Origin: a candidate division WOR-3 bacterium
GTDB taxonomy: Bacteria; Hydrothermota; Tepidihabitantia; SM23-42; JAOAFX01
DNA: 64,000 nucleotides
Reading direction: 5' to 3'
Assembly (NCBI GenBank): GCA_037443805.1
Contig: JBBINQ010000010.1
Location: forward strand, 172 to 64,171
Shown in pieces: positions 15,393 to 60,325 of the stretch (its first letter is position 1; each line of letters begins with the position of its first letter). The notes beneath the pieces were generated by a model. The model made no database searches, had not been told where the DNA came from, and saw only the letters and a list, made by a program, of their open reading frames with translations. The position numbers were made by a program, and so were the translations under genes.

Positions 15393-16397
15393 TCAAAATA
15401 TTAATGACCGAAGATTTCTTTGCAAATCACCTTCAAAAAGATATGATGCAACCGCAATGCCTGAAGCACCTGCTCTGAGAACTTTTTGATAATTCTTATT
15501 ATTTATACCACCAATGCCAATTATTGGAATCTTTATTTTCTTGCTGAGCCGATTTACCAAATCCAGGCCACAAACCCTGGCATCATATTTGGTCATAGTG
15601 GGAAAAACAGCACCAACCCCAAGATAATCTGCCCCTGCATTTTGAGCATCAATTGCCTGTTTAATATTATGAGCCGATGCCCCAATAATAAATTTCTCAC
15701 CCAGAATTTTCCTTGCATGGCTGAGCGGTATATCATCCTGCCCAAGATGCACACCATCTGCATTAATACCCAGGGCAATATCTACACGGTTGTTGATGAT
15801 AAATTTTAAGTGTGGACTCCGAATTAATTTTTTAATCTTTATTGCATAATTGTAGAATTCCCTATCCGACAAATTCTTTATTCTTAATTGCAACATTGTT
15901 ACACCATTATTTTCAAGAATGTCAATCATTTTTTTAAGCGGTAACCTATTGAGATACTTTTCATCAATAATCGCATATAATTGAGGATTAAATTTTTTTT
16001 GTCTCGTTTCAATTACTAATTTCTCAAGGTCGTAAATCTTGAATCTTATCTTTTTTATGTTTTTCACAAGTTTTTTATTTCTCTGCCGCAGAATTTCTTC
16101 AATAATCCTTGCAGACTCCTTTGCCCTGCTGAAATTTGCAAATATTAAGTCCTGTTCATCTGCCCTGGGGATATTGTCAAAAGCAGATTTTCTACCAGGG
16201 TCAATTTCACTTTTCCGATGACTAATTAAATTTTCAATAGGTAACATTTTTTTTAATTCAAAAAATTCTTTTCGCATAATTCTTATACGACTGAGTAATA
16301 CAGGAGCCTTCATTTCAAATCTTATATAATCTTCAAGGAATTTCAAAGAATCAGTGAGTCTATTTAGATTCACATCAAGAACAGATTCCCACGGCAC
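15393..16397 (-). CDS. thiE: Thiamine-phosphate synthase (ThiE domain) with a roughly 130-aa N-terminal extension of unknown function
   Basis: The C-terminal half has MLQLR.K...HLGQDD...IGASAH...GADYLGVGAVFPT...IPIIGIGGI, matching the TMP-TENI/ThiE family. Confidence 0.6.
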   Translation of the reverse strand: MPWESVLDVNLNRLTDSLKFLEDYIRFEMKAPVLLSRIRIMRKEFFELKKMLPIENLISHRKSEIDPGRKSAFDNIPRADEQDLIFANFSRAKESARIIEEILRQRNKKLVKNIKKIRFKIYDLEKLVIETRQKKFNPQLYAIIDEKYLNRLPLKKMIDILENNGVTMLQLRIKNLSDREFYNYAIKIKKLIRSPHLKFIINNRVDIALGINADGVHLGQDDIPLSHARKILGEKFIIGASAHNIKQAIDAQNAGADYLGVGAVFPTMTKYDARVCGLDLVNRLSKKIKIPIIGIGGINNKNYQKVLRAGASGIAVASYLFEGDLQRNLRSLIF

Positions 16398-32468: not shown

Positions 32469-32472
32469 GTAT

Positions 32473-32499
32473 TGACTTTTTTAAAAGAATAATTATAAT
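32473..32499 (+). promoter_or_regulatory. Sigma70-like promoter upstream of the selenoprotein candidate: TTGACT, 15 bp, TATAAT, then AGGAGG
   Basis: The sequence aTTGACTtttttaaaagaataatTATAATatagtagaaaaAGGAGGtcttATG is read directly. Confidence 0.4.
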
Positions 32500-32520
32500 A
32501 TAGTAGAAAAAGGAGGTCTT

Positions 32521-33585
32521 ATGAAGCCAAAGGGTTATCTACCTTTAAGTCTGCTTCTGGGCATTATGCTCTTGAGTGCTGGCTTTTCTGCCCAGAGGGT
32601 AGTGGTCTGTGAAGAACTCTACCAGGAAGGCTGAGGCTCCTGTAATCCAGCCAGTGGGACACTGGCTCAGATTGCAATAAACTATCCAGGTAGGGTTGCT
32701 GCTATAGAGATGCATATCAGTTCAAGTTACCCCCTGTATTGTGCTGAAGCACTACAAAGAATGTATTCTTATCCACCGCCATATTATTATGGTGGTTCGT
32801 GGTACTATGCAACACCCTGGCTCTGGTATGATGGAGACCCGCATGGAAGTTATGACTATTCACAATGGCAATCAAAGATTGTCACTGAAATGAACAGACC
32901 AGCACCATTCACCTGCACAATGTGGGGCATTTATACGCCATTAAGAGGGACTGGCACAGTCTATGCAAAATTCCGTAATGACTCTACTGCAACTCTAACT
33001 GGTCGTATCCGCTTTGTGTTGACTGAAGATAGTTTATACTATTCTGCACCCAATGGTGACCTCTGGCACAATCATGTTGCCCGCGATTATCTACCAGACA
33101 CAAGTGGAACACCGGTCACGCTTGCTCCTAATGATTCAATAACAGTGAGCAGAAACTTTACTGTCCAGTCAGGCTGGAATGCAAACAAGTGTGAAATTGT
33201 TGCCTGGATACAGAGCACGGCCTTGCTTTCTGATTCTACAAGGGACATCTGGCAGGGCGGTCTAATAAAGGTTTCTCAATTGACCTATGTTGCTGAAGAG
33301 AATACTGAAAATTCATTAACTGAGAGAATAGGACCAAGCCCGAACCCCTGTGTGAACAAGACTACTTTCAATTTTAGACTAAATAGTAGTACACTATACC
33401 AGATCAATATCTTTGATGTAGCAGGCAGAAAGATACGCACAATTAAGGGTCTGGCAACTGGTAATGAGCAGAAAGTAGAATGGGATTTAAAAGATGCTCA
33501 AGGAAAAAGAATGGGTTCTGGTGTATACTTTTATCAATTTGAAAGCAAAGAGACCAACGCAAGCGGGAAGATTGTAATAAGATAA
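32521..33585 (+). CDS. Candidate secreted selenoprotein. It has a signal peptide, an in-frame UGA at 32632-32634 inside a U-G-S-C (UxxC) redox motif, and a T9SS C-terminal sorting domain. The ORF track shows only the part from 32710.
   Basis: A strong RBS precedes ATG 32521, followed by MKPKGYLPLSLLLGIMLLSAGFSAQRVVVCEELYQEG-TGA-GSCNPASG.... The frame stays open through the track ORF to 33585. An 8-bp hairpin AGCCAGTG-gga-CACTGGCT at 32649-32667 begins 14 nt after the UGA. The C-terminus GPSPNPCVNKTTFNF...IFDVAGRKI...GSGVYFYQF...KIVIR is Por-tail-like. selA, selB and tRNA-Sec are adjacent. Confidence 0.55.
32649..32667 (+). promoter_or_regulatory. SECIS-like hairpin downstream of the in-frame UGA
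   Basis: AGCCAGTG-GGA-CACTGGCT is a perfect 8-bp stem positioned 14 nt 3' of the UGA, inside the coding region. Confidence 0.4.
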
Positions 33586-33603
33586 AAAATAAATTTTTTA
33601 TAA

Positions 33604-33644
33604 GGGCGGATGCTGTAAATACAATGCATCCGCCCTTTTTATTT
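33604..33644 (+). terminator. Intrinsic terminator after the selenoprotein candidate
   Basis: GGGCGGATGC-tgtaaatacaat-GCATCCGCCC followed by TTTTTATTT. Confidence 0.65.
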
Positions 33645-33712
33645 ATCCAGAATATCCTGCAGACAATTTGATAAGGAAAAAAATTGTAGATTACAGAAGA
33701 ACACTAAAAAAC

Positions 33713-33740
33713 TTGACTTATTATTTTTTTTTAGTATAAT
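33713..33740 (+). promoter_or_regulatory. Sigma70-like promoter: TTGACT, 16 bp, TATAAT. It sits 6 nt before the selA ATG, giving a leaderless-type transcript.
   Basis: The sequence cTTGACTtattatttttttttagTATAATcaaataATG is read directly. Confidence 0.45.
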
Positions 33741-33746
33741 CAAATA

Positions 33747-35135
33747 ATGCCAGAAATTAAAGAATTAAAGGATATACCATCCATAGATAAAATCTTAAAT
33801 TATAAAGAATTGCAGGATTTTGCGGAAAAATTAGACCATTCATACTTAGTCTCAATCATTCGCAATAAAACCGACGAAATTAGAAAACAGATAATTGTTG
33901 GAAAAAAAATTACCATTGAAGATTTCAAAAATGCAATTATTAACGAATTAAATGAGTTTATTACTCCATATTTTTCCTATGCAATAAATGGTTTGGGTAT
34001 TGTGCTCCATACTGGATTGGGAAGGGCACCATTTGTAAATGGTGTTACAGATGCACTGAAATCTATCAGCATTGGTTATTCTTTGCTCCAGATTGATGAA
34101 GAAGGAAAAAGGTCTGACCGTTACAAAAAAATAAACAAACTACTCCAGATTATAACTGGCGCTGAAGCAGGTATCTTTGTGAATAACAATGCTGGTGCAA
34201 CACTATTGATTTTAAATACCATTGGCAAAGGTAAAGAGATTATTATTTCCCGTGGACAATTGATTGAGATTGGTGGTTCTTTCAGAATTCCTGATGTAAT
34301 GGCGCAGAGCGGTGCAATATTGCGTGAAGTAGGGACGACCAATCGCACGCATTTGAAAGATTATGAATCTGCAATAAATGAAAATACTGCGGCGATATTA
34401 CGTGTACACCAATCAAATTATCGTATTATGGGTTTTACAAAAGAGGTTCCCCTTGAAGAACTCGTTGCACTCGGAAAGAAGCATAATCTACCAGTCATTG
34501 ATGACCTCGGCAGTGGTGCATTAATTGATTTTTCAAAGTATAATTTGCCAAAAGAGCCAATGGTTCAGGATAGTATAAAAGCCGGTGCAGATATTGTCTG
34601 TTTTAGCGGCGATAAACTCATTGGTGGTCCACAGTGTGGAATAATCATTGGAAAAAAGGACTATATTGAACGGATAAAAAAGAATCCCCTTACAAGGGCA
34701 TTGAGATGTGATAAATTGACAAGTTCAGTGCTTGAGGCAACGCTCCAATTATTTTTAAGAAAGGAAGAAGAAATATTAAAAAAACATACTGTTATCTCAT
34801 TGTTATTAAAACCGCTCGAGGAAATAAAAAAACAGGCACGGGTATGTGCAAAAAAGATAGCGTCTATACCTGATATTAAATGTGAAATAAAACCTTCGGT
34901 CTCTGAAATCGGTGGTGGTTCACTAAGCACTGAACAATTACCTACCTATGTCCTTGCGGTCAAATCAAATAAGATAACAGTAGAGAAACTTGCGCGGCTT
35001 TTGCGACTCTATAAACCACCAATATTTGGCAGGGTGGAGCAGGATTATTATTTGATTGATTTCCGAACCGTTTTAAAGGGTGAAGAAAAAATAATTGCTG
35101 AAGCATTGTATAATATTCTTGCAAAAAATGAGTGA
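33747..35135 (+). CDS. selA: L-seryl-tRNA(Sec) selenium transferase (selenocysteine synthase)
   Basis: [13 protein letters not shown] matches the SelA NATGVVLHTNLGR motif. The PLP-lysine region is [19 protein letters not shown]. 462 aa. Confidence 0.85.
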
Positions 35136-37050
35136 ATTACCAAAAAAACATATTGTCATTGGCACTGCCGGGCATATTGACCATGGTAAGAGTGCACTCA
35201 TAAAGTCTTTAACTGGAACAGACCCTGACCGTTTGAAAGAAGAAAAAGAACGGGGCATGACAACAGACTTGGGTTTTGCCTTTTATGGTGACGATGTAAC
35301 AATCATTGATGTCCCCGGACATGAAAAATTTGTCAGACATATGCTTGCCGGTGCAAGCACTATAGATTTTGTGATATTTGTCATTGCTGCTGATGATGGT
35401 GTTATGCCCCAGACCATTGAACATTTTGAAATATTAAAATTGCTCCAGATAAAGAAAGGTGTGATTGTTGTCACCAAAATTGACCTTGTAAAAAAAGAAC
35501 ACCTGGATACAGTCATTGAAGATATCAATAATCTAACCAGAGACTCTTTTTTACAGGATGCACCAATAATACCCGTATCAAATACCACTGGTGAAGGCAT
35601 TGATAAATTAAAAATTATTTTAAATGAACTGATCAGTAAAATTGAAACAAAACAGGATAAAAAAATTTTCTATATGCCTATTGACCGTTGTTTTACAATG
35701 AAAGGCTTTGGCACAGTAATTGCTGGAACCATTCTTTCCGGGAAGATTAAAATCGGTGATACTGTAGAACTTTTACCACACAAAAAACAGTTAAAAATTC
35801 GGGGAATTGAAGTTCATAATAAAAAAGTTGAAGAGGTAGGAACAGGTTATCGCGCTGCAATAAATATTGTTGGTGCAGAAAAAGAAGAGATTGAAAGGGG
35901 AAATGTAATTGCCCAACCCGGATACTTTGAACCTTCTTTATTTATGAACGGTTCTTTATATCTTTTAAATTCTGCCCCGGGTTTAAAAACCTTTACCAGA
36001 GTAAGAATCCATATCGGCACGAGCGAAGTCCTCGGACGGGTCATCATCCTGGAAAAAAAGAGTATTGAACCAGGTGAAAAGGCAATGGTCCAGTTTCGCT
36101 TAGAAACTCCAGCAGTATGTGATATTGGAGATAGGTTTGTAATCCGCAGTTATACACCGGCGATGACAATTGGTGGTGGTGTAATCTTAGAACCGAGGGC
36201 AGAAAAGATTAAGGCATTTGATGAGAAGATTCTTGAACATTTACAAAAAATAGAGACCCAGGACCCGCTTGTGCTTGTGGAAGAAGACCTGAATCAAAAT
36301 TGTACCATACCCAGAAAAGTTGAAGACATTGCGAAAGATGTGAATCTTAATTTAGAAACTGTGAAAAATCTGATTAGAGAACTATTAAACCGAAACGCAG
36401 TGGTTGTAATTGATGAAAAAAAAGGATTATATTTCAGTACGAAAAACTTCACAGAGTTAAAAAATAAAATTCTTGAAATCATAAAAGATTATCATCACAA
36501 TAATCCCACACATTTAGGAATACCCAGGCTTACATTGACAACACATCTTCCCAGGGGATTGGATAATAGCCTATTTAATTTTGCAATCAATCAATTAAAA
36601 CAAGAACAGAAAATTAATATTGCTGAAGATGGAAAGATTAGTCTTTATGACTTCAAGGTCTCATTAAATAAAGAACTTGAAGCATTGGTTCAGAAAATAG
36701 AAAAAATATTTTTGGATGCCAGATTTCAGCCGCCAGAAATTGAAGTTTTAATAGAACAGAAAATCGGGACTCCTGATTTAATAAAAAAGGCTTACCGATA
36801 TTTGCTTGATAACGGCACACTGATTTTTGTTGGTGAAGGGATTGCCTTTCATAAAGATATGCTGGAAAGTGCAAAAACAAAATTAATCAATTTTTTAAAA
36901 GAACATAAAGAGATAAGGGTTGCTGATTTCCGTGATTTAATCAATGCCAGCAGAAAGTATGCCCTGCCCCTTTTAATCTATTTTGACACAAAAGGTATTA
37001 CTATTAAACGGGGAGAAGTGCGTGTTTTAGGCATTGGCGGAGGCGTGTAG
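35128..37050 (+). CDS. selB: Selenocysteine-specific translation elongation factor SelB
   Basis: [30 protein letters not shown]...[17 protein letters not shown] is a GTPase domain. The long C-terminal extension carries the winged-helix domains that bind SECIS. The ATG at 35128 overlaps the selA TGA (ATGAGTGA), so the start is placed there rather than at the ORF-track 35095. Confidence 0.85.
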
Positions 37051-37130
37051 GAATCGAACCTACCGTCCCCCTTTCGAAGGACAACCGGGTTTGAAGCCCG
37101 TCAGGCACACCAGCACCCATCCGCCTCCCC
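37035..37130 (-). tRNA. selC: tRNA-Sec with anticodon UCA (ends approximate)
   Basis: The reverse complement reads GGAGGCGGATGGGTGCTGGTGTGCCTGACGGGCTTCAAACCCGGTTGTCCTTCGAAAGGGGGACGGTAGGTTCGATTCCTACACGCCTCCGCCA. The anticodon loop is CT-TCA-AA, the variable arm is long, the T-arm is GTAGG-TTCGATT-CCTAC, and the acceptor arms are GGAGGCG and CGCCTCC followed by G-CCA. Confidence 0.7.
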
Positions 37131-37462
37131 ATTATATTTAGATTTTCTCAATACCGTTCACAGATTATAAATAACAGTTTATCCTGCTAAACTTATTATA
37201 TTCATAAGCACAAATTTGTCAATCAGTATTAGCAAACATTAAGATACTCACTATCGCTTTGGCGTTGACTTAATGCTAAAAAATTATATAATATAGCAAA
37301 TGAAGGAACAGTAGGTTATTAATAGTAAGAAGACAAATGAATGTTTATAAATGCAGGATATTTATTATTATAATATTACTAATAAAATTGTGTGTTGCTG
37401 ACCGGATACCCAATTCATTTATTGCCAAAATAAGCGAATTATATTCGTAGATACCACAGGAT

Positions 37463-38929
37463 ATGGCATCTTTTTATGGCTCGGATTTTAAAATAAATTT
37501 TGAAAAAACCAACCAAATTGGAGCTGCTTGGTATAGCTATGTTGAACCAGGATATTGGATTTATAATTATGTCCGGATAGATACCGCAGGTAATATTTTA
37601 ATGGACGCACGTAATTTTGATAGTAAAGATGTTTTTTGGCACAAATTCGACATCTTGGCAGACGCGTATAATCCCAATCCGCATCTAAAATATTTAACTG
37701 ATGAACAGGGGAATAGTATTATAATTTATAATTATTATGTGGATGAACAATCAGGTGAAGGCTGGAAATTAGCATGGGTAAAAATCGATACTTCATTTAC
37801 TTTGTCACACAATACTTTAAATGGAACTTCCAAAAGCAACTCTTTCACAGTCTACGCTTCCAAAAAATATGATTTTCATCTGATAAATGGCGGTGAATAT
37901 AGAAAGCGCACTAAGTCAGAGCGAGTGAATTTTTTGAATTACGAATTTCATTATCAAAAAAAGAAACCGCATCTTATACCTCCAAGTCATTTTATAGAAA
38001 CAAGTGACAATAATTTGTTGTGCCTTAGCCATTATCGTGATTCTGCCGAAATCCATTATCAGTGTATCTCTCCAAAAGGTAAATTCTTATTTGGCAGCAG
38101 AGCAAAAATTAATCATGTAGCTGCTATTATCTGGGACAATCTTGACTTACCATATTGTGAAGAGATTTTTCAATGGAACGGTACTATATGGTATATAACG
38201 ACCGTCCCTTCAATCCATTATCGCGGTCAAAATAGTATAGTCTTGATTGTATTTGATAAGAAAGGAAGGATAACGAAACATAAGGCAGTATTGAAAACGA
38301 AGCTCTTTTCCATTGATAGCTTACCGGGTAACGCAAAACGATTTATTTATTTCTTAAAAAAAGTGATCTATTATTTGGGGATTGATAGCAATGGTAATCT
38401 TTATTATTGGAATAGCAAACGAGGATATATAGATTATAACCGAGCCGATCTCTTTGCCCCATTTTTTGCAGTTCATTATAACCATGTAAAAGACAGTTTT
38501 TATAATCCATTAACTGAAAATAACTTATATCCAGACAGCATGAACGAACTCTCTCTTTGGTCAAAAGGCGGTAAACTGAAACACAATATGAAATTGTTAA
38601 TTGGATGTAATAAACAAAGTAAAACTTATATGCCGGGTGAACTTATTGGCATACGGTGTGGGATTATTCATGCAAATTTAAACGAAAGAGTATTTTTAGC
38701 CAAAGCCCATTATAGCCCCAATAAGTGTGGTTGGCCTCCGGAAATTACTATCCATATCAATGCTCCAGCAGACGCCATCAGAGAAAAAATGCATTTAGGA
38801 TATTTGGGAGATGATTGTATTTTTATAAATCGTCCAAAATCAGAAATTCGTTTTGACAAAGATGCAGTAAAGATTTTTTTAAAAAAGTTTCGCCCCTTAT
38901 TTAATAAGCAGCATCAGGTGATAGCTTGA
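37463..38929 (+). CDS. Hypothetical protein (488 aa), Tyr/Asn-rich, with no recognisable domain
   Basis: Long open frame. An in-frame signal-peptide-like ORF (37337-37447) lies just upstream, separated from it by a single TAG. Confidence 0.4.
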   Translation: MASFYGSDFKINFEKTNQIGAAWYSYVEPGYWIYNYVRIDTAGNILMDARNFDSKDVFWHKFDILADAYNPNPHLKYLTDEQGNSIIIYNYYVDEQSGEGWKLAWVKIDTSFTLSHNTLNGTSKSNSFTVYASKKYDFHLINGGEYRKRTKSERVNFLNYEFHYQKKKPHLIPPSHFIETSDNNLLCLSHYRDSAEIHYQCISPKGKFLFGSRAKINHVAAIIWDNLDLPYCEEIFQWNGTIWYITTVPSIHYRGQNSIVLIVFDKKGRITKHKAVLKTKLFSIDSLPGNAKRFIYFLKKVIYYLGIDSNGNLYYWNSKRGYIDYNRADLFAPFFAVHYNHVKDSFYNPLTENNLYPDSMNELSLWSKGGKLKHNMKLLIGCNKQSKTYMPGELIGIRCGIIHANLNERVFLAKAHYSPNKCGWPPEITIHINAPADAIREKMHLGYLGDDCIFINRPKSEIRFDKDAVKIFLKKFRPLFNKQHQVIA

Positions 38930-38930
38930 T

Positions 38931-39173
38931 TCATCGCTTGGAAGCATCTAAAACAGTTATACCCACAAGTTCATTTTCTTTATACCTTAGCAAAATGCCA
39001 TTGTTCAACATTTTAGAATCCGTTGCCTTCTGCGGTCTTTTAAAACTTATATAAAGAACATCCGCCTCCTTGTCATAGTCAATCCACATCTTCCTCTCGG
39101 GAAATTTAAGAAGATGCGGCGTCGCACTGAACACTTCTTTTAAAAACTTATCTCTTATGGTTCTTTTTTCCAT
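38931..39173 (-). CDS. DUF2283-family small protein, a putative antitoxin-like partner
   Basis: MWIDYDKEADVLYISF...GILLRYKENELVGITVLDAS matches the DUF2283 pattern. It overlaps the upstream small gene by 19 nt. Confidence 0.5.
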   Translation of the reverse strand: MEKRTIRDKFLKEVFSATPHLLKFPERKMWIDYDKEADVLYISFKRPQKATDSKMLNNGILLRYKENELVGITVLDASKR

Positions 39174-39463
39174 AGTAAAACCTCCCTTTTAAGGTTAATT
39201 TTTGTTGTAAAATATGCGGTTATTACAAAACCATCTGCTTTAGAAACTTCCTTATATATTACTGCCAGAAATTTTCTTCTTTCCATCCTTTTCAGGGCTA
39301 CAAATGCTTCGGTATAACCTTTAACTATATAATCCGGTTCTTCAATTGTATTAAGCACTAAATCATAATAACCGGCGAGGTCATCATGGTTTTCAATTAT
39401 ATGGATCCATCGCTCTTCAGGTAATCTTATCGGTATCCCATTTTTTGATTTTACTATATCCAT
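39155..39463 (-). CDS. Small protein (102 aa), possibly a DUF4258-like toxin partner of the DUF2283 gene
   Basis: The gene pair is operonic and overlapping, which is typical of DUF4258-DUF2283 modules. A sigma70-like promoter on the minus strand at 39502-39529 reads TTGACT, 16 bp, TATAAT. Confidence 0.4.
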   Translation of the reverse strand: MDIVKSKNGIPIRLPEERWIHIIENHDDLAGYYDLVLNTIEEPDYIVKGYTEAFVALKRMERRKFLAVIYKEVSKADGFVITAYFTTKINLKREVLLWKKEP

Positions 39464-39693
39464 AACTTAGCCCTAAATTTCATTATTTCTAATCATTGAT
39501 GATTATAAATAAAAATATTAAATAGTCAAGGCTGGCTTTGATCCGTTGTCAGGTAAACCCGAGCTTTATTCAGAGTTATAAAAGGGGACTCCTTCAGCAA
39601 CCTCGTATGGTAGCGTCAAAAATGTTGTGTAAATTTTATTAAGCAGCAACATCGCCTTCTTGACAAATGAATATTTTTGTATAGAATAAACCT

Positions 39694-47423: not shown

Positions 47424-47778
47424 CTACTGTTCGCGATTTTTCAGACAGGGAAAACACGAAGATATGTGGTTCTGATGTTGAGTGGCTGCGTAGATACAAA
47501 GATAGTAGGTAGTAAGTAGTAAGTAAGAAGTAGGAAATTGTAGATATTCAGTATCGAGTATCAATTATCCAGTATCGAGTATCAAGGAAGCATCCATGCC
47601 TTATAACCATACTGGCTGCTATGCCCTACAACCTTAGACCATTCTATTAATCGTCGTTCGTTATACCGTTTCGAAATCCGTTTGGTCAATCGTCAAGAGG
47701 TTATGGTTATATAAACAAATAACTTTGCCTTTAACCGAAACGGGCATCATTTCCATAGATCCCATAGATATTGTAGTT

Positions 47779-47869: not shown

Positions 47870-50797
47870 CTATTTAAGTTTGACCACCTTCTGAATTAAG
47901 ACCTTTTCAGGGCAATCTAATCTCACAAAATATACACCAGCAGGAAGTTTGCGGCCTAAATCGTCGTCGCCATACCACAGAACATAATTAAATTGGTAAT
48001 TGGTTAAATGGTTAAATTGTTTTACCAATCTACCCGTCGCATCATAGATCTTCAATTTGGTGTTTGGGATTTGAGATTTGGGATTTGTTTGGAATTTGGT
48101 GCTTGGGATTTGGAATTTCATCACAAGGTGATTCCTGAATGGATTTGGATAAACTTTTAGTTGTGCACTTATAGATTTTTCAGATTCTTCAATCCCCACA
48201 TATCCGGCAAGATTACCAACTTCCCAGTCAAGGAGCGCTGGATTACTCGGCGATTTTGTAATCCTGTAGAACAAACCTTTCAAGCGTATCGTGTTATAAG
48301 TAACTGTATCAACATTGGTCAATTTTATTGTATCTATAGGAAAGGTCGTAAAGAAACCCGTCGCATTTCCGGGTAGAATAGAATTTGGTATTAGCTGCCA
48401 GTTTGAGCCAGTATAGTATTCAACCTGGATACCAATAGAGTCACCAGCAGTTGCCTTGTGCCAGACTATATCACCCCATTTATTTCTTGGATAGGTTGTA
48501 GAGAGGTCATGGTAATATACGGGTGTTCCTTTAAGTTCACCATAATTTGTTAATTGATAACTATATCGTAGAAGAATATTATCAACTGCACAAGCCCATC
48601 CCCAGGTCGCACTGGTCTCTGTATAATACCACTCAAACTGCATTGAATCGCAGGGCAGATAAGTATTTAAATTGATTGTCTCGGTTCCAGAACTGCTTGT
48701 ATTATATTCACGCAATTGAACCCAGTTAGTCCAGGAACCACTAACAAAACGGCGCATCCTGAGCCGATAATAATCAGAAGATGAATAATCCCGGTAACCA
48801 TAGGCATAGATCAATTCCAGTCCACTGGTAATTCCTCCAACATAAATCTTTGGCGAAACCAACCCCTCTTCTAAACTCTGGGGTGCACTACTTCCTGCAT
48901 CATCATCAGAATAATATGCATACCTTGTGCCATAATCAGGTGGCACATAACTCCCTAAATCACCAGTAGTTCCGGTTGTCCAGTAATAATTATCATTGTT
49001 GCTATTCACAATTGTCCAGGCTGGAGGCATACCTGATTCAAAATTTTCAAATAATAGTGTATCAATTATGGTCTGACCAGAGGGCAATAATACTACACTA
49101 TCACCCTGAACCTGAGTGCCATTAAAAATATCATAGGCAAACTGTGCACCAGTAGTCTGATACCAGGAGCAGGTATTCTGGGGTAGACTCGTTCCAATCG
49201 TAAATGAGCGTTTTTCTGTGAATTGCGTCCAGAGACCGGTTCCGCCCGGGTCAGTGCACTTTACCTTCCACCAGTAAGTTGCTCCATCAATCAATTGTGC
49301 CGGCATAACAAAGTTAACAATTGAACCGCTCGGATATGTGGATGTTGTAGCACTATCTGGACTGACAAAATTCGGGTCATTATCCCACACAATCCTGTAT
49401 TGTATATTATCACCCTGCGGGTCAGTTGAACTAAATGACAGCGTAGGTTGTTGCACTGGTAATCGGGCAAAATTAAATGGTTTGATTATTTCTGGCACCG
49501 CTGGCATACCAGAAATGCCATAAGGTTTTATCAGAACTGATAATGCTGCAATCTCAGCTTTTATAACCTCGGTGCAGAATGCATTATTATTATAGCCTGC
49601 ACCGATTGTATCACTCGTCTGGTGATAATGGGGATTTGTGGGCCAGTAATCTTCAATATTACACAACCCAGGATAACCATTATCATAAAATGGTTGAATA
49701 TCAGATGGAATTGATGATACAGTCTGTTTAATTGTAAGTAGACTTGTGTAGGTATCAGCACAGGCAACAAAGAAATCAGCAAAAGGAACATTGGCACTAT
49801 TGGTGAGCACATCGCAATTCTCAGGTGCAGCATCAACATATCCAATCATATCACCATTTAGCACACCAAGGATAATATGCCCCTGCTGACTGGCATTGTT
49901 TGCATAATATTCGCTACCATAGAGTCCAAATTCTTCACCGCTAAAGGCAATAAACCTTGCGGAATATTCAAAAACATAATCCTTCATCACCCTCGCTGCT
50001 TCAATTGCTGCAACTGTGCCACTTGCATTGTCATCTGCACCCGGTGCAATGTTTGGTGCCTGGTTAGAAGTAGCATCAAAATGGCCATCAATGATTGCAT
50101 AAGTATCAGGATAGAGAACACCCCATTTTATACCAATGACATTGGGTGCATGGCCTGAGGTATGGTATTGAAAATAGACTGAATCGCAACCATATTCAAT
50201 AAATTTATTCCTTATCCAGTTTGCTGCAGCCTGACAGGAGTCATGTGTAGAATACCTGGTGCGGAAGTTCTGCAGTCTGCGCACAAAACTGAGCACAGTA
50301 TCAGGGTTCACTTTGTTAACAATCTCCTCAATAATTGGATGCCTGGACACCACAGGAAAAGCAGGCAATGATCTTCTAATTACTGGTTTAAATGAAAGTC
50401 GCACGACCTCAACTGGCTCCCGGGTCAATCGTAAGAGTCCTTGTTCATCTATTTTCATAAGCGTAATATTATTGTTCACAAATAAAATTTCTCCGAAACT
50501 TCGCAGGTCAACTGGTGTATTAAATTGATACACGAGATAATATTCACCTTCTTTTACATTTCTTTGAAGAATTTTATAATTGAATCCTGCTAATTTTGCA
50601 AGTTCAGAATCATCCATAATAATCAATGCATAATGATCCAGTTCTTTTATTATTTTTACATCACGCATATATAGAGGTTCAAGTCTCTGATAATTTAATT
50701 CCACACTGACAATATTTGTTCCTGCATAACAAATAGAAAAACCAACAAAAAAGAAAAACAAAAATAATTTATCAATTATTTTCATAATGAACCTCAC
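47870..50797 (-). CDS. M28-family metallopeptidase, large and multidomain, with a T9SS C-terminal sorting domain
   Basis: N-terminal signal peptide, an M28 Zn-ligand region HFDATS...GADDNASGTVAAIEAARV, and a C-terminus VYPNPF...IYDATGRLV...GVYFVRL...KVVKLK that is Por-tail-like. Confidence 0.7.
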   Translation of the reverse strand: MRFIMKIIDKLFLFFFFVGFSICYAGTNIVSVELNYQRLEPLYMRDVKIIKELDHYALIIMDDSELAKLAGFNYKILQRNVKEGEYYLVYQFNTPVDLRSFGEILFVNNNITLMKIDEQGLLRLTREPVEVVRLSFKPVIRRSLPAFPVVSRHPIIEEIVNKVNPDTVLSFVRRLQNFRTRYSTHDSCQAAANWIRNKFIEYGCDSVYFQYHTSGHAPNVIGIKWGVLYPDTYAIIDGHFDATSNQAPNIAPGADDNASGTVAAIEAARVMKDYVFEYSARFIAFSGEEFGLYGSEYYANNASQQGHIILGVLNGDMIGYVDAAPENCDVLTNSANVPFADFFVACADTYTSLLTIKQTVSSIPSDIQPFYDNGYPGLCNIEDYWPTNPHYHQTSDTIGAGYNNNAFCTEVIKAEIAALSVLIKPYGISGMPAVPEIIKPFNFARLPVQQPTLSFSSTDPQGDNIQYRIVWDNDPNFVSPDSATTSTYPSGSIVNFVMPAQLIDGATYWWKVKCTDPGGTGLWTQFTEKRSFTIGTSLPQNTCSWYQTTGAQFAYDIFNGTQVQGDSVVLLPSGQTIIDTLLFENFESGMPPAWTIVNSNNDNYYWTTGTTGDLGSYVPPDYGTRYAYYSDDDAGSSAPQSLEEGLVSPKIYVGGITSGLELIYAYGYRDYSSSDYYRLRMRRFVSGSWTNWVQLREYNTSSSGTETINLNTYLPCDSMQFEWYYTETSATWGWACAVDNILLRYSYQLTNYGELKGTPVYYHDLSTTYPRNKWGDIVWHKATAGDSIGIQVEYYTGSNWQLIPNSILPGNATGFFTTFPIDTIKLTNVDTVTYNTIRLKGLFYRITKSPSNPALLDWEVGNLAGYVGIEESEKSISAQLKVYPNPFRNHLVMKFQIPSTKFQTNPKSQIPNTKLKIYDATGRLVKQFNHLTNYQFNYVLWYGDDDLGRKLPAGVYFVRLDCPEKVLIQKVVKLK
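47936..48143 (-). repeat. Dispersed repeat: the T9SS CTD-encoding module, shared at about 85% nucleotide identity with 55794-56003. It contains an imperfect (GGRATTTG)n tandem tract at about 48061-48120.
   Basis: An identical 38-mer, acataattaaattggtaattggttaaatggttaaattg, occurs in both copies. The flanks are highly similar. The two host proteins are unrelated elsewhere. Confidence 0.7.
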
Positions 50798-50826
50798 TTA
50801 CCAATTTTTACCCCTCGCCCTCCAGT

Positions 50827-50855
50827 TTTAAACTAAGCGAGCAGAGGGTAGGACC
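50827..50855 (-). terminator. Intrinsic terminator of the S8 peptidase gene
   Basis: Perfect 12-bp stem GCGAGCAGAGGG-tagga-CCCTCTGCTCGC. Confidence 0.55.
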
Positions 50856-50878
50856 CTCTGCTCGCTCTCTAACAGCCT

Positions 50879-53800
50879 TTATTTCAGAAGAATTGCTTTT
50901 TTCGTATCAGTGAACTTGTCTGTAGTAAATTGATAGAAGTAGATACCAGATGCAAGTTTACGACCCACATCATCCTTACCATCCCAGATTACAGTATAGA
51001 AGCCTGGACTCTGTTCGCTGTCAACAAGTGTGCGCACAATCTGTCCGAGACAGTTGTATACCTTTAAGCTGACCTTTGCATTCTGTGGCACAGCATAATT
51101 GATGCGCACAATTCCTTTTGTCGGATTGGGCATAGGACTTGAAAGGCTATAACTCAAAGGCATACCTGTATTTGCCTCGCTAATGCCCTGGAGAGGACGG
51201 ATATCGCCATCAATCAGGGTGAATGTCCGGTAATACCAGGCGCCCCAGTTCTGTGCCCGATATGTCGCATTATCACGACCACGGACAAACAGAGAACAGA
51301 CGCGCACTGCACCAGGTGTATATATAAGTCTGATTGATGCGTTCACATCCTCTACAATCTCATTCCAGGTACCATCTGTAACCTGCATTGGCTGTTCACC
51401 ACTGGAATTTCCACTCGGGCTCTTGGCAATATAAGTTGCCGCACCAATCGTGCTCATTCCAGTCTCAGAATCACTAACAACTGCAGTAAATGCTAATAAG
51501 GTATCGGTAGCAGTCACGAACTTTGGATTATTGGCAACAACAATAGAGTTCGGAATCACCTTGGGACCCAAGTCATCATTTCCTGCGATGTTAATAGTAA
51601 AGTTACCTGTTTCAGCAAATCCCTTCATTGATGGATAGACATTCCTGTCATTCGCAGTAACACGGACCCGATAACTATTTCTGTTCTGCATTGCACTTAC
51701 ATTCCAGGAATATGGTGAAGTCATACCTGTGCCTGAAGCAATAGTATACCAGGTCTGTCCAGCATCAGGTGAATACTCAATCCAGGTTGTATCAATTACT
51801 GCACCACCATAGGCAGTCGCGGTCCAGGAGATTGTAATCGGGCTTGAGGTATATGTCTGACCACCAACTGGCGAAGACAGGGTCACATCTGGATGGTCAT
51901 GTCCGATGAGCCAGATGAACATATTATTGAGAATATCGGTCCTGGTCGCACTATTGGGATTGGTCGTATCAATCTGGGTGATCTCAAAGCCATTGAACAC
52001 TACCCTTGTCCTCTGGCCGCCCCAGACTCCATCACCTGGTGTTCCCATATTGTTTGTTGATTCCCATTTTATACCACAGGAATCATTTGCTGCATTACCA
52101 TGCCAGACATAGGTGCCAGTCCCTGCAGCACCAGTGCCAGAGAGTCGTATTGAATCACCAGCCGCACCTGAACGGAATGGTTGGTATGTAACACCTGCAG
52201 TATAATTACCAGAGATTGGGTCACCTGCAATACCCCTTACTGAAGTCCAGGATGTGGCAGTAATATCACCAATATAGCGGAAATGGAGCTGGTTCTTACA
52301 AAAGACCGTATCAACATGCGAATAAGCCCAGTTATCCCAGCCAACATCATGGCCAGTAAAGGCTAACCGTGCACCATTATCATGATATGTTTTGACCGTC
52401 TCTTTCTGTGCTACTGTAAAGACCGGATAGTTCTCCTGCGCAACCTGGAAATAGACCGCCTTATACCATTTCAGGTCGTTTCGTGTAAACTGGCCATTGG
52501 TCATCGTCACCCACCAGTTATAGGTCCAGCCACCAGCTTGTAATGCCCTATCCATAAATTCTGGATGGGCAAACTCCTCACCCTGATTACTATTATTCAA
52601 CAGAACAACGAGCACATCAATACCTGCCTGAGCCTTGGTCTTGAATGTATAATGGAGACCACCATTGTTGTCACGAACCGCATTACCACGAAAGTCCTTT
52701 GATTCTACATCATAATAATAGATGGTATTTGGCGTCAAACCTGCCAGCGTTACCCGGTGTGGCATACAGAACGGTGTATCCACCTGAGCAACAAGATTCA
52801 GATTGCTCGGATTCGTCCCATAATAGACCTTTGAATTTGCACCTTCATTTGTTGTCCAGCACACATCTGCTGACAGTGCTCCAATATTCTCACAGCGCAC
52901 ATTGGATATGGCAAAATACCAGGCATCAACCGCTGCCCAGGTCGTAGAAATATATGAAGGATTCGCATCAGTATAAGAGACATAGATGGTATCACCCTGG
53001 CACACAGACAACCTGCCATCACCATGTGTGGCGCCACGGAAAAGCAAGGGAAATTCTCCTTTAAATACATAAGAACTCTCTGCCATCTCCACACAACGAA
53101 GCGTCTCAGGCTGTGTCTCTATATATTTACCAGTGAGCACGACCCTGACCGTATCCCGAATACCAACTGCACCATAATTTGGGTCCTCAACCCTGACCCT
53201 GACCGTATCAATGATAAAGTCATTTGCCCGATAAACAGGCTTGTCAGTTGATACTGCGCCCGCAACAGTGGTTGCAGTATATGTAATTACAAGGGCAAAT
53301 GGCTGTGGTCCATAAGGAACATTCCTACCTTCAATGCGCACAAGCCAGTCACCTGCAGTAGGTGAGTTCACACGGATGCACTCTTCAACATTGAGAGAAT
53401 CCCGGTTTGCAGGATTTGCCACTGATTGCCCACCTGAATATTGATTGCCACGATAATATGTCCCACCAACCTGAGCGTATAAATCTAAATCATTGACAAT
53501 CTGTCTATTTACTGTTGGATTACCTGGATAATCGGTCCAGACAAGCGTAATCTTTAAAACACTCGCTCCAGAAGGCACACTGAAATGGAAATCTTTTCTC
53601 TCACCTGTGAGCACACCAATTGTATCATCAAGCACTAAGGTTTTACGGGCATCACCAGAAAAATAGAGTGTTGAATCAAGGTCAACCCTGCCCCAGCCAA
53701 TATTGTTATCAGGGACTGTATAACCAGTGATATTGGGGTCAGCACAGTTAATGAGTATCGCCTTTATCATTGCTGCACTGATATAAGACCAGGCATTACC

Positions 53801-55510
53801 CGCAACCTTTTTACCGGTTGGATACCAACCTTCACGCAGGTACTGTCTTGCCAGTGCGCCAGCACCAGCTGCACCAGGAGAAGCCATACTGGTTCCGGAC
53901 ATTGTAGAGAAACCGGTCGTTCCGTTAGTTGCAGATTGGATGCTGGATCCAGGTGTAAGGATTGTCGGCTTTATTCTATTATCATCGGTTGGTCCACGGC
54001 TCGTGATGGTATAATAAGACCGACAGGATGTTCCATTTAGTGTGCCACCCACTGACACGCAATTCTTTGCCGCGGCTGGAGACCCAACAGTATTAGCCCC
54101 ACCTGCATTGCCATTGCTGTAAAAGAGGAGGAAATCCTTATGTGCCCACATAAACTGGTCAACATTCAGACACATACTGGTATATGCACCGCCTGCGTCT
54201 GCACCCCAGGAATTTGTGCTCAGATAAGCACGAATACCATGGCTGGCATAATACTTGTTATAGGGACGAATGTAGAGGTCATTCAAATCACCAAAGGTAT
54301 AGATGGCAGGACTCGTATTGTCTCCGCAATCATTGTGATAGAGCCTTGCCATCTTGGCAATTCCGTCTCTATAATCTGAACCAAGTGTTGTATCATTCCC
54401 TGCTGTTGTGCATCCAGTATGTGTGCCATGATAACTTGCACCTGAGCCATCACCAAATACAATGTTTGCCGGTGCACCTGAATCATAGGCAACAATCTTA
54501 TTGTGCGTCGGATACACACCCCAGGTTGTAATCGCTGCACTGCCTGCACGATGCATATAATGACTGGTATTAATACCTGAATCACAATGATTGATGATCT
54601 CACCCTGACCAAGGATACCCATACCCCACATTCTGCGGGCAGTATTATCATTACCTGGCGGTGCGCTTGCCCAATATCCAGTCTGAACAACCCATTGGTA
54701 TTGCTGATTATGCATTTCCGGCTGAATATAAGGTTCAAGCCAGTATATCTCTTTTATCTGGGCAAGCGCAGGCAAATCATCCTTATTCAACATAACCCAG
54801 ACCATCTTGTTTATTCCATTATCTGAAGTAGTAACTTCATCTTCTCCACTTATTGCTTTTATCTGATTCACAACTGCCTGCATATCTGCATCATTAAAAA
54901 GGAGAATCGTTACTGGATGTCTATCATTTACCCTATCAAATAGTGCAGAAATCTTATAAGCAGGTTGATAAATGCCCATCCAGTTTACTGAAGGATTTGA
55001 AAGGATTGCATTCTTCTGTGATTGCCCTTTTAATGAAACCACAAAACCATAGTGTGGTATGTAGAAGTGAATCTTTATACCCTGGGATGCAAGCCAGTCT
55101 TTTTCAGGACCATAGATTGGTCCGGAAAACTGGACAATATAGTATCCTATTTCATCATCACGGTACTGGGTTTTTAAATGTGCTGGTAATTCTGGCTCCC
55201 CATTTTTACCAAGCAGTTTTGTATCAAATGAGATACCATTGGAAAAGACAATCTTTGTCGCATCACCATAGGTCACTGGCATAAACTGGGATTTTGTTTG
55301 AGCAGAGAATGCAGGAATCACATCATTGCGAATAATATTCTGCTCCACATTCTCTTTTGGCTGTTCATATTTTACCGGTTCCACCGGTATTGTTTTATGC
55401 TGTGGCACTGTTTTATTTGCACCCAGCACAAACGTCGCCATTATTAAGATTAGCAAGATTTTTTTCATCTCATCTCCTTTTTTTTGGCTCTGCGAGCCAC
55501 TATGCTTCAC
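50879..55510 (-). CDS. Giant S8-family subtilisin-like serine peptidase (1543 aa) with a T9SS C-terminal sorting domain
   Basis: Catalytic His in HGTHTGCTTAGN and Ser in GTSMASPGAAGAGALARQYL. Signal peptide. The C-terminus reads VKVYNCLGQIV...GIYFYQF...KAILLK. Confidence 0.8.
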   Translation of the reverse strand: MKHSGSQSQKKGDEMKKILLILIMATFVLGANKTVPQHKTIPVEPVKYEQPKENVEQNIIRNDVIPAFSAQTKSQFMPVTYGDATKIVFSNGISFDTKLLGKNGEPELPAHLKTQYRDDEIGYYIVQFSGPIYGPEKDWLASQGIKIHFYIPHYGFVVSLKGQSQKNAILSNPSVNWMGIYQPAYKISALFDRVNDRHPVTILLFNDADMQAVVNQIKAISGEDEVTTSDNGINKMVWVMLNKDDLPALAQIKEIYWLEPYIQPEMHNQQYQWVVQTGYWASAPPGNDNTARRMWGMGILGQGEIINHCDSGINTSHYMHRAGSAAITTWGVYPTHNKIVAYDSGAPANIVFGDGSGASYHGTHTGCTTAGNDTTLGSDYRDGIAKMARLYHNDCGDNTSPAIYTFGDLNDLYIRPYNKYYASHGIRAYLSTNSWGADAGGAYTSMCLNVDQFMWAHKDFLLFYSNGNAGGANTVGSPAAAKNCVSVGGTLNGTSCRSYYTITSRGPTDDNRIKPTILTPGSSIQSATNGTTGFSTMSGTSMASPGAAGAGALARQYLREGWYPTGKKVAGNAWSYISAAMIKAILINCADPNITGYTVPDNNIGWGRVDLDSTLYFSGDARKTLVLDDTIGVLTGERKDFHFSVPSGASVLKITLVWTDYPGNPTVNRQIVNDLDLYAQVGGTYYRGNQYSGGQSVANPANRDSLNVEECIRVNSPTAGDWLVRIEGRNVPYGPQPFALVITYTATTVAGAVSTDKPVYRANDFIIDTVRVRVEDPNYGAVGIRDTVRVVLTGKYIETQPETLRCVEMAESSYVFKGEFPLLFRGATHGDGRLSVCQGDTIYVSYTDANPSYISTTWAAVDAWYFAISNVRCENIGALSADVCWTTNEGANSKVYYGTNPSNLNLVAQVDTPFCMPHRVTLAGLTPNTIYYYDVESKDFRGNAVRDNNGGLHYTFKTKAQAGIDVLVVLLNNSNQGEEFAHPEFMDRALQAGGWTYNWWVTMTNGQFTRNDLKWYKAVYFQVAQENYPVFTVAQKETVKTYHDNGARLAFTGHDVGWDNWAYSHVDTVFCKNQLHFRYIGDITATSWTSVRGIAGDPISGNYTAGVTYQPFRSGAAGDSIRLSGTGAAGTGTYVWHGNAANDSCGIKWESTNNMGTPGDGVWGGQRTRVVFNGFEITQIDTTNPNSATRTDILNNMFIWLIGHDHPDVTLSSPVGGQTYTSSPITISWTATAYGGAVIDTTWIEYSPDAGQTWYTIASGTGMTSPYSWNVSAMQNRNSYRVRVTANDRNVYPSMKGFAETGNFTINIAGNDDLGPKVIPNSIVVANNPKFVTATDTLLAFTAVVSDSETGMSTIGAATYIAKSPSGNSSGEQPMQVTDGTWNEIVEDVNASIRLIYTPGAVRVCSLFVRGRDNATYRAQNWGAWYYRTFTLIDGDIRPLQGISEANTGMPLSYSLSSPMPNPTKGIVRINYAVPQNAKVSLKVYNCLGQIVRTLVDSEQSPGFYTVIWDGKDDVGRKLASGIYFYQFTTDKFTDTKKAILLK

Positions 55511-55553
55511 CTATTTTTTATTTTTCTGCATCACCTCCTTTTTTAATTATGAA

Positions 55554-55581
55554 ATTATAATAAAATTCTACCCAATGTCAA
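55554..55581 (-). promoter_or_regulatory. Sigma70-like promoter on the minus strand for the S8 peptidase gene: TTGACA, 16 bp, TATAAT, with AGGAGA upstream of the ATG
   Basis: The reverse complement reads TTGACAttgggtagaattttatTATAATttcat...aaaaaaaggagatgagATG. Confidence 0.4.
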
Positions 55582-55727
55582 TACCACCTTGATTATTCAC
55601 CCCATTGTTTTAACAGAAATTAGTTATTCGGTGAAGAAATAAGTACAGAAGTCAGAATTAAGAAGTTAGTCTTAAAAACATTATTCAGACTTCCAACCTC
55701 CATACCCACTTCCTCAACCAACGTCCA

Positions 55728-58700
55728 TCATCTCAATAATACAGCCTTTTCCACCTGTTTGAAATTATCCACCTCAAACCGCACAAAATAGACACCTGCA
55801 GGAAGTCTACGACCTAAATCATCATCACCAGACCACAAAACATAATTAAATTGGTAATTGGTTAAATGGTTAAATTGCTTCACCAATCTGCCCGTCGCAT
55901 CGTAGATTCGTAGTTTGCTATTTGGAATTTGGAATTTGTAGTTTGTTTGGGATTTGGTGCTTGGAATTTGGAATTTAATCACAAGGTGTTTCCTGAATGG
56001 ATTCGGTGCTATTCCAAAATAGAATCTATTATTATCATTTCTCGCAATAAGTTCTTTAATCCCTGGCCAGTATCGTGATTTATAACAACCTGAATTGTAT
56101 GGATCATAACGGAACTTTGGCCAATCAAAGACTTTTGAATCAAGATTAAATACCCAGAACTTAAAGTCATTTGCACCGACCATCAGTTCAAGTTTTCCAT
56201 CATTATCAATATCAAAGACTGCTGGAGACTGCTCAATTCTAATACCAAAATGGATGGGAAATCCACTCAAAAGTCCTCCACTATTATTAAATGCATATAA
56301 ATTCCAGTCTGCAGCACCACAGATAATATCCATTACACTATCTCTATCCACATCAGTCACTATAGGAAGTTTATAATCATGCCCAATAACTACAGGAAAA
56401 CCCGGCACCATATTACCCAAAGAATCAAAGACCGATAAAAATTGCATTCCCTGGTTACTGCCACAGATGACCTCTGGCCTTTCGTTTCCAATAACATTTG
56501 CAATAACCGGGTATGCCTCAACATCACCTAATGATGGAATATAACTCTGCCAGACGATATTACCGCCGGCATCAACCACATTGAGCATATCTGTAGAATC
56601 TGTATAAAAACAGATTTCAAGATTGCCATTACCATAAATATCACCGAGAGCCGGAGAATAAGACATCTTCCTTGCGATAATCACAGGAAATGGTTCAAGA
56701 TAATTACCATAACGGTCCCAGACAAATAGAGAATCTGAATTAGAACCACCACACGCAACAATCTCTAAGTTGCCATCATCGTTTATGTCACCAATGGCTG
56801 GTGAACCACCATTCCAGCCATACAAATTCTTCAATAGACCATCCGGTGAATAGAGCCCTTCACCATTATGATGGAATGCGTAAAATGTGCCATTTTCAGT
56901 GATGACAAAAATTTCTAAATCTCCGTCTTCATCAATATCTGCAAGGGCAGGTGAACAAAGCACACCACCATTAAGGGATTTGGGCCAACCCGGCACAGGG
57001 CTCCAGTTATTTGTCCCATCATTGGTCAAAATATAAAAATTATTATCCCAACTTCTTATACCAAAACAGATCTCAAGTGAACCATTATTATCAACATCAC
57101 CAATTGCTGGTGATGACCATATCTCATTATTGGTTTGAAAGATAATACCATCAGGATTATTTGCTGCGGGTGTGCCATCACAATGCCAGACATAGGCCAT
57201 GCCATTCTTACTACAAACTGTGATTTCAAGACCGGGATAGAATGGATCAAGGTCGCCAAAATTTGGCGAAGAAAAGAGATAACCATAAACAGTTCTGGGC
57301 CAGCCCTGTGCCACTATCGGATTTGTCTTCGCAGGAATCGTATCTGAACTTATTCCTTGATTCATTGAAGAATCAACCATAACAAGATAATAATAGTAAT
57401 AAATATTTTGCTGAACATTTGAATCTTCAAAGTGTGCAACAGGTGTTAATGAATTTTTAATAAACTTAAAAGGACCTGAGGGATTTGTAGCACGATAAAT
57501 TCGGTAGCCAGCTGCACCATTTACAGGTGTCCAGTTTAAGATGATTGAATTCGGCATACCGAATGCCCACAATGATTCTGGGGGTGCAGGTGTATTCAAT
57601 ATAATCCTTTTCTCCTGAACTTTGTTATTAAGATAATACAGAGAGAATTTATAACATACTGAACCAGAATCATTTAATTGCAGGGCAAATGAATCTGTGC
57701 CAGATATGATTTCATCGGGCTGAACCCGGGTGAAATAGACAATGCTATCAATAATAGTAATTGTATCAGAATAGGCTTCAATCTTTGCATAGGCAGAATC
57801 TGCACTACAATTACCAGAATTCTCAATAAATGGCAAAATTTTATACAAATTACCTTCTATCCTGAATTGTTGTGTAAAGAGAGAGAGCACTGGAGATTGA
57901 GCAACAATCTGGCAGGTATCATAATTTATTGAGCTGTAATCAATATCCAAGTATAGAGTAAAACTATAACCATCTGGAATGTCTGGACCAATTCTCAACT
58001 GGAATGGTGTTAAATTCTCTCTGACTTCACCAGGCAGAATCTGCCCATAAGAGGCAGTATCCACAAGGATTGTGATAAAACTATCTGAACTTGTTATTGC
58101 AAGTCTACACGAATTAATACCTTGATTCCCATTATTAATTAAACCAAGATATAAATCTATGGTTTCACCAGGATTCGCAATGCCGTTGTTGTTTCCTGAA
58201 GAATCAATGATAGATGAATGGTGATACACAATATATGGCTCAGAATTCTTCACATATATTGAATCAATATATGGGATAAAATCTTTACTCAGAATTGTAT
58301 ATTTCAAAAAACCTGATGATTTGATTTTAAGCGTGGTAAATGATGCGCCTGCAAAACCTGTGTCTTTTATGAATAACTCATTCTCTTTATAGAAAATAGC
58401 AAAAAATGTATCTATCTGGGGAAGGGTATTGATAATAAGTGTATCCTGTCCCAGGTGGAGTGTATCTTTGTTCACAATTATAGAATCAATAATATGCGGT
58501 ATGGTCTGCCACATATTCAGTGTTGGATCACCTAAGAGGTTCAGCGAAAACTGGAATACCCTTGCCCAGTTGTCAAACTGAGATTGTGGTATCAGGGGAA
58601 TCTTTGACCAGGCAAGTGCACCAGCAAGGGGATTACTAAATAGTGCATTGAATAAATGGGTTATATATATCTCCTGGTCATAGGCAACACTGGAACTTGT

Positions 58701-60254: not shown

Positions 60255-60281
60255 ATTATTTAGTTCTGATGTACAGGGCTG

Positions 60282-60308
60282 GAGGCACTGATTTGAAATC
60301 AGTGCCTC
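60282..60308 (-). terminator. Hairpin downstream of the second S8 gene, a probable terminator
   Basis: GAGGCACTGATTT-g-AAATCAGTGCCTC, a perfect 13-bp stem. The U-tract is poor. Confidence 0.4.
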
Positions 60309-60325
60309 AAGCCTATTTTAATCTC

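Follow-up and report, generated by a model that had tools for sequence, protein, structure and literature searches.

A selA-selB-selC block beside a selenoprotein gene that is truncated in public annotation in a candidate division WOR-3 bacterium

We studied a 64,000-nt stretch of DNA from a candidate division WOR-3 bacterium (assembly GCA_037443805.1, contig JBBINQ010000010.1, positions 172 to 64,171), referred to here as the window. It carries selA, selB and selC, the genes for selenocysteine (Sec) incorporation, next to a gene whose reading frame is interrupted by TGA and which encodes a predicted Omp28-like selenoprotein. The selC gene encodes the tRNA for selenocysteine (tRNA-Sec) and lies on the opposite strand, converging on the end of selB. 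The features of the locus are collected in Table 1; homologous loci from other genomes are denoted by L numbers.

Table 1. Genes and predicted elements of the Sec locus (window coordinates).
Feature	Position	Strand	Basis
Promoter-like site of the selenoprotein gene: TTGACT, 16 nt, TATAAT	32472-32499	+	11/12 consensus matches
Omp28-like selenoprotein gene, 354 codons	32521-33585	+	PF11551, TIGR04183, TGA read-through
In-frame UGA read as Sec, residue 38, first position of U-x-x-C	32632-32634	+	TGA in 70/70 intact loci
SECIS-type (selenocysteine insertion sequence) hairpin GCCAGUG-GGA-CACUGGC	32650-32666	+	Fold and covariation
Terminator-like hairpin and U-run after the selenoprotein gene	33602-33646	+	-25.2 kcal/mol, z = -5.9
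Predicted selAB promoter: TTGACT (33713), 16 nt, TATAAT (33735-33740)	33713-33740	+	11/12 consensus matches
selA, L-seryl-tRNA(Sec) selenium transferase, 462 aa	33747-35135	+	TIGR00474, PF03841, PF12390
selB, selenocysteine-specific elongation factor, 640 aa	35128-37050	+	TIGR00475 and Pfam domains
selC, tRNA-Sec, anticodon UCA, encoded CCA	37035-37128	-	ARAGORN, Rfam RF01852
Promoter-like site of tRNA-Sec: TTGACA, 16 nt, TATAAT	37195-37222	-	12/12, perfect consensus

Both protein-coding genes of the block matched curated NCBI equivalog models, to which the models' own cut-offs were applied. SelA aligned to TIGR00474 over its full length (residues 8-454 on profile positions 2-453) with 550.1 bits against a cut-off of 267.9, and a Pfam scan gave 478.6 bits for PF03841. 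The N-terminal Se-cys_synth_N match (PF12390) was weak, yet above threshold. A lysine motif of the FSGDKLxGGPQ type that binds pyridoxal phosphate is present in the translation, its lysine presumably corresponding to K295 of E. coli SelA. SelB scored 353.5 bits with TIGR00475 (cut-off 242.25) and carries the Pfam domains GTP_EFTU, GTP_EFTU_D2, Beta-barrel_SelB, SelB-wing_2 and SelB-wing_3; its C-terminal winged-helix domains, PF09106 and PF09107, reached 33.8 and 60.9 bits, both above their cut-offs. The two genes share ATGAGTGA at exactly 35128-35135, where the selB ATG precedes the selA TGA in an 8-nt overlap. To judge from this arrangement, translation of selB is probably coupled to termination of selA.

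ARAGORN found a single tRNA in the whole window, a tRNA-SeC (tca) of 94 nt including CCA, and the Rfam tRNA-Sec model RF01852 matched it with 76.9 bits (gathering score 47, E = 4.6e-14). The anticodon loop is CUUCAAA. Folding and the Rfam alignment gave a D-stem of 6 bp (GGGUGC/GUGCCU) closing a loop of 4 nt, followed by a variable arm of 8 bp, a T stem of 5 bp, a discriminator G and the 3' end GCCA. The tRNA occupies the last 16 nt of selB on the opposite strand, so that the codons for the end of SelB (...GIGGGV) lie antisense to the 3' acceptor strand of the tRNA. An identical 16-nt overlap was found in L004 and L005, the closest relatives of the window's locus. The preliminary description of this DNA had named selA, selB with their 8-nt overlap, and a convergent tRNA-Sec with a UCA anticodon at the selB end. 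All of this is borne out by the domain models, by the sequence at the overlap and by the agreement of ARAGORN with RF01852; only the proposed tRNA length of about 96 nt has to be shortened to 94 nt. The selA-selB-selC set is ordinary, intact, known machinery, and standard pipelines would call all three genes.

The gene directly upstream of selA is of a different kind. When the window was scanned for open reading frames (ORFs) joined across TGA, the one interrupted at 32632-32634 was the sole convincing case and no further local selenoprotein gene was convincing, in line with the earlier proposal of one local Sec codon in the upstream gene. Read-through of this TGA connects an N-terminal piece of 37 codons with the annotated 291-aa ORF, which begins at 32710. 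The N-terminal piece contains a signal peptide and RVVVCEELYQEG, and the TGA is followed by GSC, which gives RVVVCEELYQEG-U-GSC and hence a U-x-x-C motif. The joined protein carries an Omp28 domain (PF11551, 48.3 bits, cut-off 34.9) and a C-terminal sorting domain for type IX secretion, the latter recognised both by TIGR04183 (40.4-40.8 bits, cut-off 23) and by PF18962 (31.1 bits, cut-off 27).

We found 72 homologous loci in a scan of species-representative genomes. WOR-3 genomes account for most of them; Stahlbacteria contribute some, a Latescibacterota bin contributes one, and two come from bins that carry the label Desulfuromonas. Each of the 70 uncut loci has TGA at the same position, behind a signal peptide and RxVVxE and ahead of x-x-C, at identities down to 33%. 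No form with cysteine (Cys) in place of Sec was present among these 70 loci or in a search of 5.8 billion proteins.

The 60 nt 3' of the TGA align without gaps, and a hairpin of 7 bp begins 15 nt after the UGA. Its pairs covary: C-G (35 sequences) alternates with U-A (33) at pair 24-30, G-C (36) alternates with A-U (20) at pair 25-29, and four of the seven pairs change on both sides. These changes fall largely at synonymous third positions, the loop base G26 is invariant, and the covariation score was reached by none of 500 shuffles. Genome-wide recoding of TGA was considered and rejected, since TGA ends 12 of the 47 window genes, selA included. Conservation of TGA with x-x-C, a covarying hairpin and the otherwise normal use of TGA as a stop codon together identify the upstream gene as a real selenoprotein gene.

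Public annotation treats this family differently. A search of the 5.8 billion proteins returned 279 homologues, and all of the 120 that were listed are no longer than 313 aa, indicating that these begin after the TGA. Among the matches listed, those that had a name were called 'Omp28-related outer membrane protein' or 'T9SS type A sorting domain-containing protein', and the source was mostly candidate division WOR-3. The pre-TGA piece of 37 codons is made into a separate tiny gene by gene callers at L007 (8014-8127) and L003 (1-114). When a profile of the N-terminal domain was run against the same 5.8 billion proteins, five were found, and a correctly annotated Sec form was not among them. Only one, a 164-aa JGI protein (P0121), spans the Sec site, where it has W; this suggests that a genetic code in which TGA means Trp was used to translate its contig. 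The NCBI model NF045500, 'Omp28-related selenoprotein', is the nearest description. It too combines Omp28 relatedness with Sec, and residues 24-254 of the window protein, including its Sec-bearing N-terminal region, align to positions 37-271 of the model. Nevertheless the window protein scored only 32.6 bits and eight relatives 29-52 bits against a cut-off of 200, so they are not members of that family. This shortfall probably explains the name 'Omp28-related outer membrane protein' that truncated versions bear in NCBI-sourced records. Literature searches turned up nothing relevant on Omp28 selenoproteins, on selenocysteine in WOR-3 or on selenoproteins with type IX secretion.

The N-terminal domain is probably thioredoxin-like, its Sec forming part of a U-x-x-C redox motif. 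Searched against the PDB, a profile built from the 112 N-terminal residues of the mature protein gave weak matches (best E = 0.014), of which 50 of 53 were thioredoxins, all in the same register, with Sec on the first Cys of WCGPC. Pfam searches across 39 members matched DUF1223 in 23 and Thioredoxin in five, with best E-values of 7e-5 and 3e-4, respectively. An AlphaFold model of residues 39-354 (mean confidence, pLDDT, 76.7) consists of an Ig-like sandwich and the sorting domain; compared with known structures it gave no thioredoxin match, only generic Ig-like sandwiches at TM scores of 0.2-0.3, and a single-sequence search with the Omp28 part against the PDB gave no match. Thioredoxin-fold selenoproteins with U-x-x-C include Sec-containing thioredoxin, DsbA-like and peroxiredoxin-like proteins. 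The window protein resembles them in that Sec takes the place of the attacking Cys, between a beta-strand and a helix, and in the conserved T-P before the next strand. It differs in its fusion partners, an Ig-like sandwich and a type IX sorting domain. Cys forms are abundant in most families of thioredoxin-fold selenoproteins, whereas no Cys homologue of the window family was found. The fusion to a type IX sorting domain makes surface exposure presumable, and a secreted or surface thiol-selenol oxidoreductase is our best reading of the protein.

Expression signals were sought in 5.3 kb around these genes by counting matches to the 12 positions of a sigma-70-type -35/-10 consensus. Four sites had 11 or 12 matches, and three of them are placed where the locus needs promoters. 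Between the first of these and the ATG at 32521 stands the Shine-Dalgarno sequence AAAGGAGGT. The strong, intrinsic-terminator-like hairpin behind the selenoprotein gene is predicted to end its transcription unit, and the perfect site on the minus strand precedes the 5' end of tRNA-Sec by about 66 nt. At selA, 6 nt separate the -10 element from the ATG at 33747 and there is no Shine-Dalgarno sequence; the selA mRNA would be leaderless or near-leaderless. The same geometry, TTGAC(T/A), 16 nt, TATAAT, 5-6 nt and ATG, precedes selA in seven of eight related loci. The spacing between -10 and ATG is 6 nt in L008, L004, L006, L007 and L045 and 5 nt in L061. Loci that share it extend down to about 64% SelA identity and differ in their spacers and upstream flanks; in L006 and L007 even the gene upstream of the promoter is not that of the window. 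A similar arrangement recurs in the window itself, where several other genes lack a Shine-Dalgarno sequence and carry a consensus -35/-10 pair that ends 5-9 nt ahead of the start codon (for example at 3630, 15393-16397 on the minus strand, 30428 and 39694). Such spacing therefore looks like a habit of the genome and not a speciality of the Sec module, and suggests that leaderless or very short-leader mRNAs may be common in it.

The selenium donor of the pathway is selenophosphate, made by SelD. The window covers nearly all of one 64,179-bp contig, and within it tblastn with E. coli SelD gave a best E of 3, whilst Pfam scans of essentially all ORFs detected no AIRS, AIRS_C, SelU or YedF-type domain. 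Both searches agree with the preliminary description, which had reported no selD here. SelD would be needed and is presumably encoded elsewhere in the genome. For that second part of the earlier claim the support is by analogy only: in a complete WOR-3 genome (CP070834.1) some 0.76 Mb separates selAB (near 1.64 Mb) from selD (near 0.88 Mb). In this relative the selD gene (L032, 14558-15580, minus strand) carries TGA where the codon for the active-site Cys would stand (AG*ASK), indicating that SelD is itself a selenoprotein, and a paralogue of the Omp28-like selenoprotein gene is found about 5 kb away.

The selenoprotein family is repeatedly found beside Sec genes, in several orders. L004 and L005 (82% identity) share the window's order of flavodoxin, selenoprotein, selA, selB, tRNA-Sec and thymidine phosphorylase. 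In L006 and L007 a 9-kb MoxR/Bat operon separates the selenoprotein gene from selA. Elsewhere the order is selA-selB-selenoprotein (L039), selA-selB-tRNA-selenoprotein (L061), tRNA-selenoprotein (L045, L079) or selenoprotein-tRNA (L048). Rearranged linkage that recurs far above chance for genomes of 2.4-2.8 Mb points to a functional tie. The tie is not an exclusive one. At least twelve genomes hold two or three paralogues of the selenoprotein; in JBBILZ01, of the same species as the window, the paralogues L008 and L043 lie on separate contigs and both have the TGA. The complete genome CP070664.1 has one family member with no Sec gene within 10 kb. It had been suggested that the module is kept mainly for its neighbour. 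This survives only as the repeated adjacency to Sec genes in several orders; a second Sec paralogue in the same species and a SelD that is a selenoprotein in a relative both speak against such exclusivity.

The block itself has clear limits. The same-species locus L008 aligns to the window in blocks of 96-97% identity, with window segments 32508-33677 and 33673-37228 split by a 3.3-kb insert. The segment from the selA promoter to the selC promoter (33673-37228) is a discrete syntenic unit between two variable spots. The L008 insert (2644-5946) holds two unknown ORFs of 483 and 410 aa and sits between the selenoprotein terminator and the selA promoter, at window position 33673-33677. On the other side, 2.4 kb of the window (37229-39654) is missing from L008; this stretch contains a 488-aa ORF (37463-38929) with no Pfam or NCBIfam match, and on the minus strand a DUF2283 gene (38931-39173) with a PBECR2-like nuclease gene (39155-39463), a pair that resembles a toxin-antitoxin module. 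An 87-nt intergenic stretch at 47621-47707 is 78% identical, in reverse orientation, to L008 9613-9699, the spacer after tRNA-Sec, and may be a small dispersed repeat.

Taken together, these observations are best explained by a self-contained Sec-incorporation block (33673-37228) of the WOR-3 bacterium with the adjacent selenoprotein gene as its client, to which we give a probability of roughly 0.88. Several points weigh against it or against its parts. The tRNA-Sec acceptor has seven Watson-Crick pairs and a G-A at pair 8, and one pair of the anticodon stem is non-canonical. No Rfam SECIS family matches the hairpin, even at E <= 10; the SECIS elements of bacteria are short, and models cover them poorly. 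The thioredoxin-fold assignment is built on individually weak matches, and the structural model, which lacks strand 1 and the Sec and is of low confidence in its N-terminal part, is uninformative on the redox domain. Both selA-to-selB coupling and leaderless initiation are predicted from geometry. Transcription of selA might instead start elsewhere, for example by read-through from the selenoprotein gene, with a leadered ATG used independently of a Shine-Dalgarno sequence and an incidental TTGACT...TATAAT. The region is AT-rich and contains 26 promoter-like sites where 19.6 are expected by chance, many window genes have no recognisable Shine-Dalgarno sequence, and L039, alone among the related selA loci compared, is without the promoter geometry. 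Against this, the selA site matches 11 of 12 consensus positions, its 5-6-nt spacing is kept in seven of eight loci despite differing contexts and spacers, a strong terminator stands between the upstream gene and the promoter, and L008 retains the promoter though 3.3 kb has been inserted just upstream. We consider a leadered selA unlikely, and the leaderless promoter put forward in the preliminary description gains support from the comparison of loci.

The absence of selD from all 64 kb, a further point against a complete pathway in this organism, would also fit a decaying or incomplete Sec system, non-functional without selD, in which the upstream TGA is the true stop of a dead gene; annotators do treat that gene as a 291-aa protein. 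Decay is hard to reconcile with selA, selB and tRNA-Sec that are full-length and score far above curated cut-offs, or with a TGA, signal peptide, x-x-C and covarying hairpin kept in 70 of 70 loci. SelA is 98% identical in protein to that of L008, against 96% DNA identity for the selA-selB-tRNA block; for L004 the SelA identity is 87%, against 78% for a longer stretch of aligned DNA. These figures indicate purifying selection. An unlinked selD is moreover the situation in the complete relative genome, as in E. coli, and we hold a decaying system to be highly improbable. Equally little weight can be given to the idea that selA-selB-selC is a mobile cassette recently gained beside its client and not a stable chromosomal locus. 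Strain-variable insertions do bound the block on both sides, and its position relative to the selenoprotein gene varies by lineage. However, no integrase, transposase or other mobility gene was found at the module, and direct or inverted repeats flanking it amounted to chance-level AT-rich matches. The surrounding order (UbiA, BacA, flavodoxin ... thymidine phosphorylase, HD, LemA) is shared with L004 at 78-82% DNA identity, and the tRNA-Sec sequence is identical or near-identical across WOR-3 loci, consistent with vertical descent.

If the block with its client works as proposed, selA and selB would form one transcription unit from a sigma-70-type promoter, and selC would provide the tRNA convergently from its own consensus promoter. 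SelA would convert Ser-tRNA(Sec) to Sec-tRNA(Sec) with selenophosphate, and SelB would bring the product to ribosomes paused at a UGA with its SECIS hairpin. The selenoprotein gene, with its own promoter and terminator, would be a client of this machinery, its Sec decoded via the conserved hairpin 15 nt past the UGA. The parts of this scheme that we infer are leaderless initiation, translational coupling, redox function, surface location and a selD elsewhere. Compared with the selA, selB, selC and selD genes of E. coli, the window has the same three components with the same domain architectures, a tRNA likewise with a UCA anticodon, long variable arm and 6-bp D-stem, and a hairpin that, like the fdhF SECIS, directly follows the UGA and has a conserved loop G. 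The selAB operon and the unlinked selD are also alike. By contrast, selC is convergent with selB in the window, with the 16-nt overlap, and is at a separate locus in E. coli; selA is apparently leaderless; and the client gene, which lies next to the block, codes for a secreted protein and not for formate dehydrogenase.

Two further observations were made elsewhere in the window. The queuine tRNA-ribosyltransferase gene tgt (5457-6571) is present as two overlapping ORFs in different frames, one matching positions 3-166 of Pfam TGT and the other positions 168-352. Nine consecutive A (5975-5983) mark the break, so the split reflects either an error of assembly or a genuine frameshift. The minus strand of 47870-63799 encodes four very large predicted secreted proteases, of types M28, S8, C25 (with FG-GAP repeats) and S8, three of which carry type IX secretion sorting domains.

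What is new at this locus is the misannotated selenoprotein family and the comparative support for leaderless selAB expression. The conserved spacing from -10 to ATG offers a clean, testable case of predicted leaderless expression in this group. In every genome examined, public annotation systematically cuts short an entire family of presumed WOR-3 surface proteins, their N-terminal Sec codon having been taken as a stop; correcting this restores the signal peptide and the U-x-x-C redox site, and would change selenoproteome estimates for an uncultured phylum. We further propose, tentatively and at slightly less than an even chance, that WOR-3, Stahlbacteria and their allies possess a Sec-only family of thioredoxin-like, presumably surface-exposed oxidoreductases sorted for type IX secretion, so far unrepresented as such in public protein databases, with two or three paralogues per genome and linked to Sec genes. 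If this is true, the Sec-only family would be a principal client of the Sec trait in the phylum.

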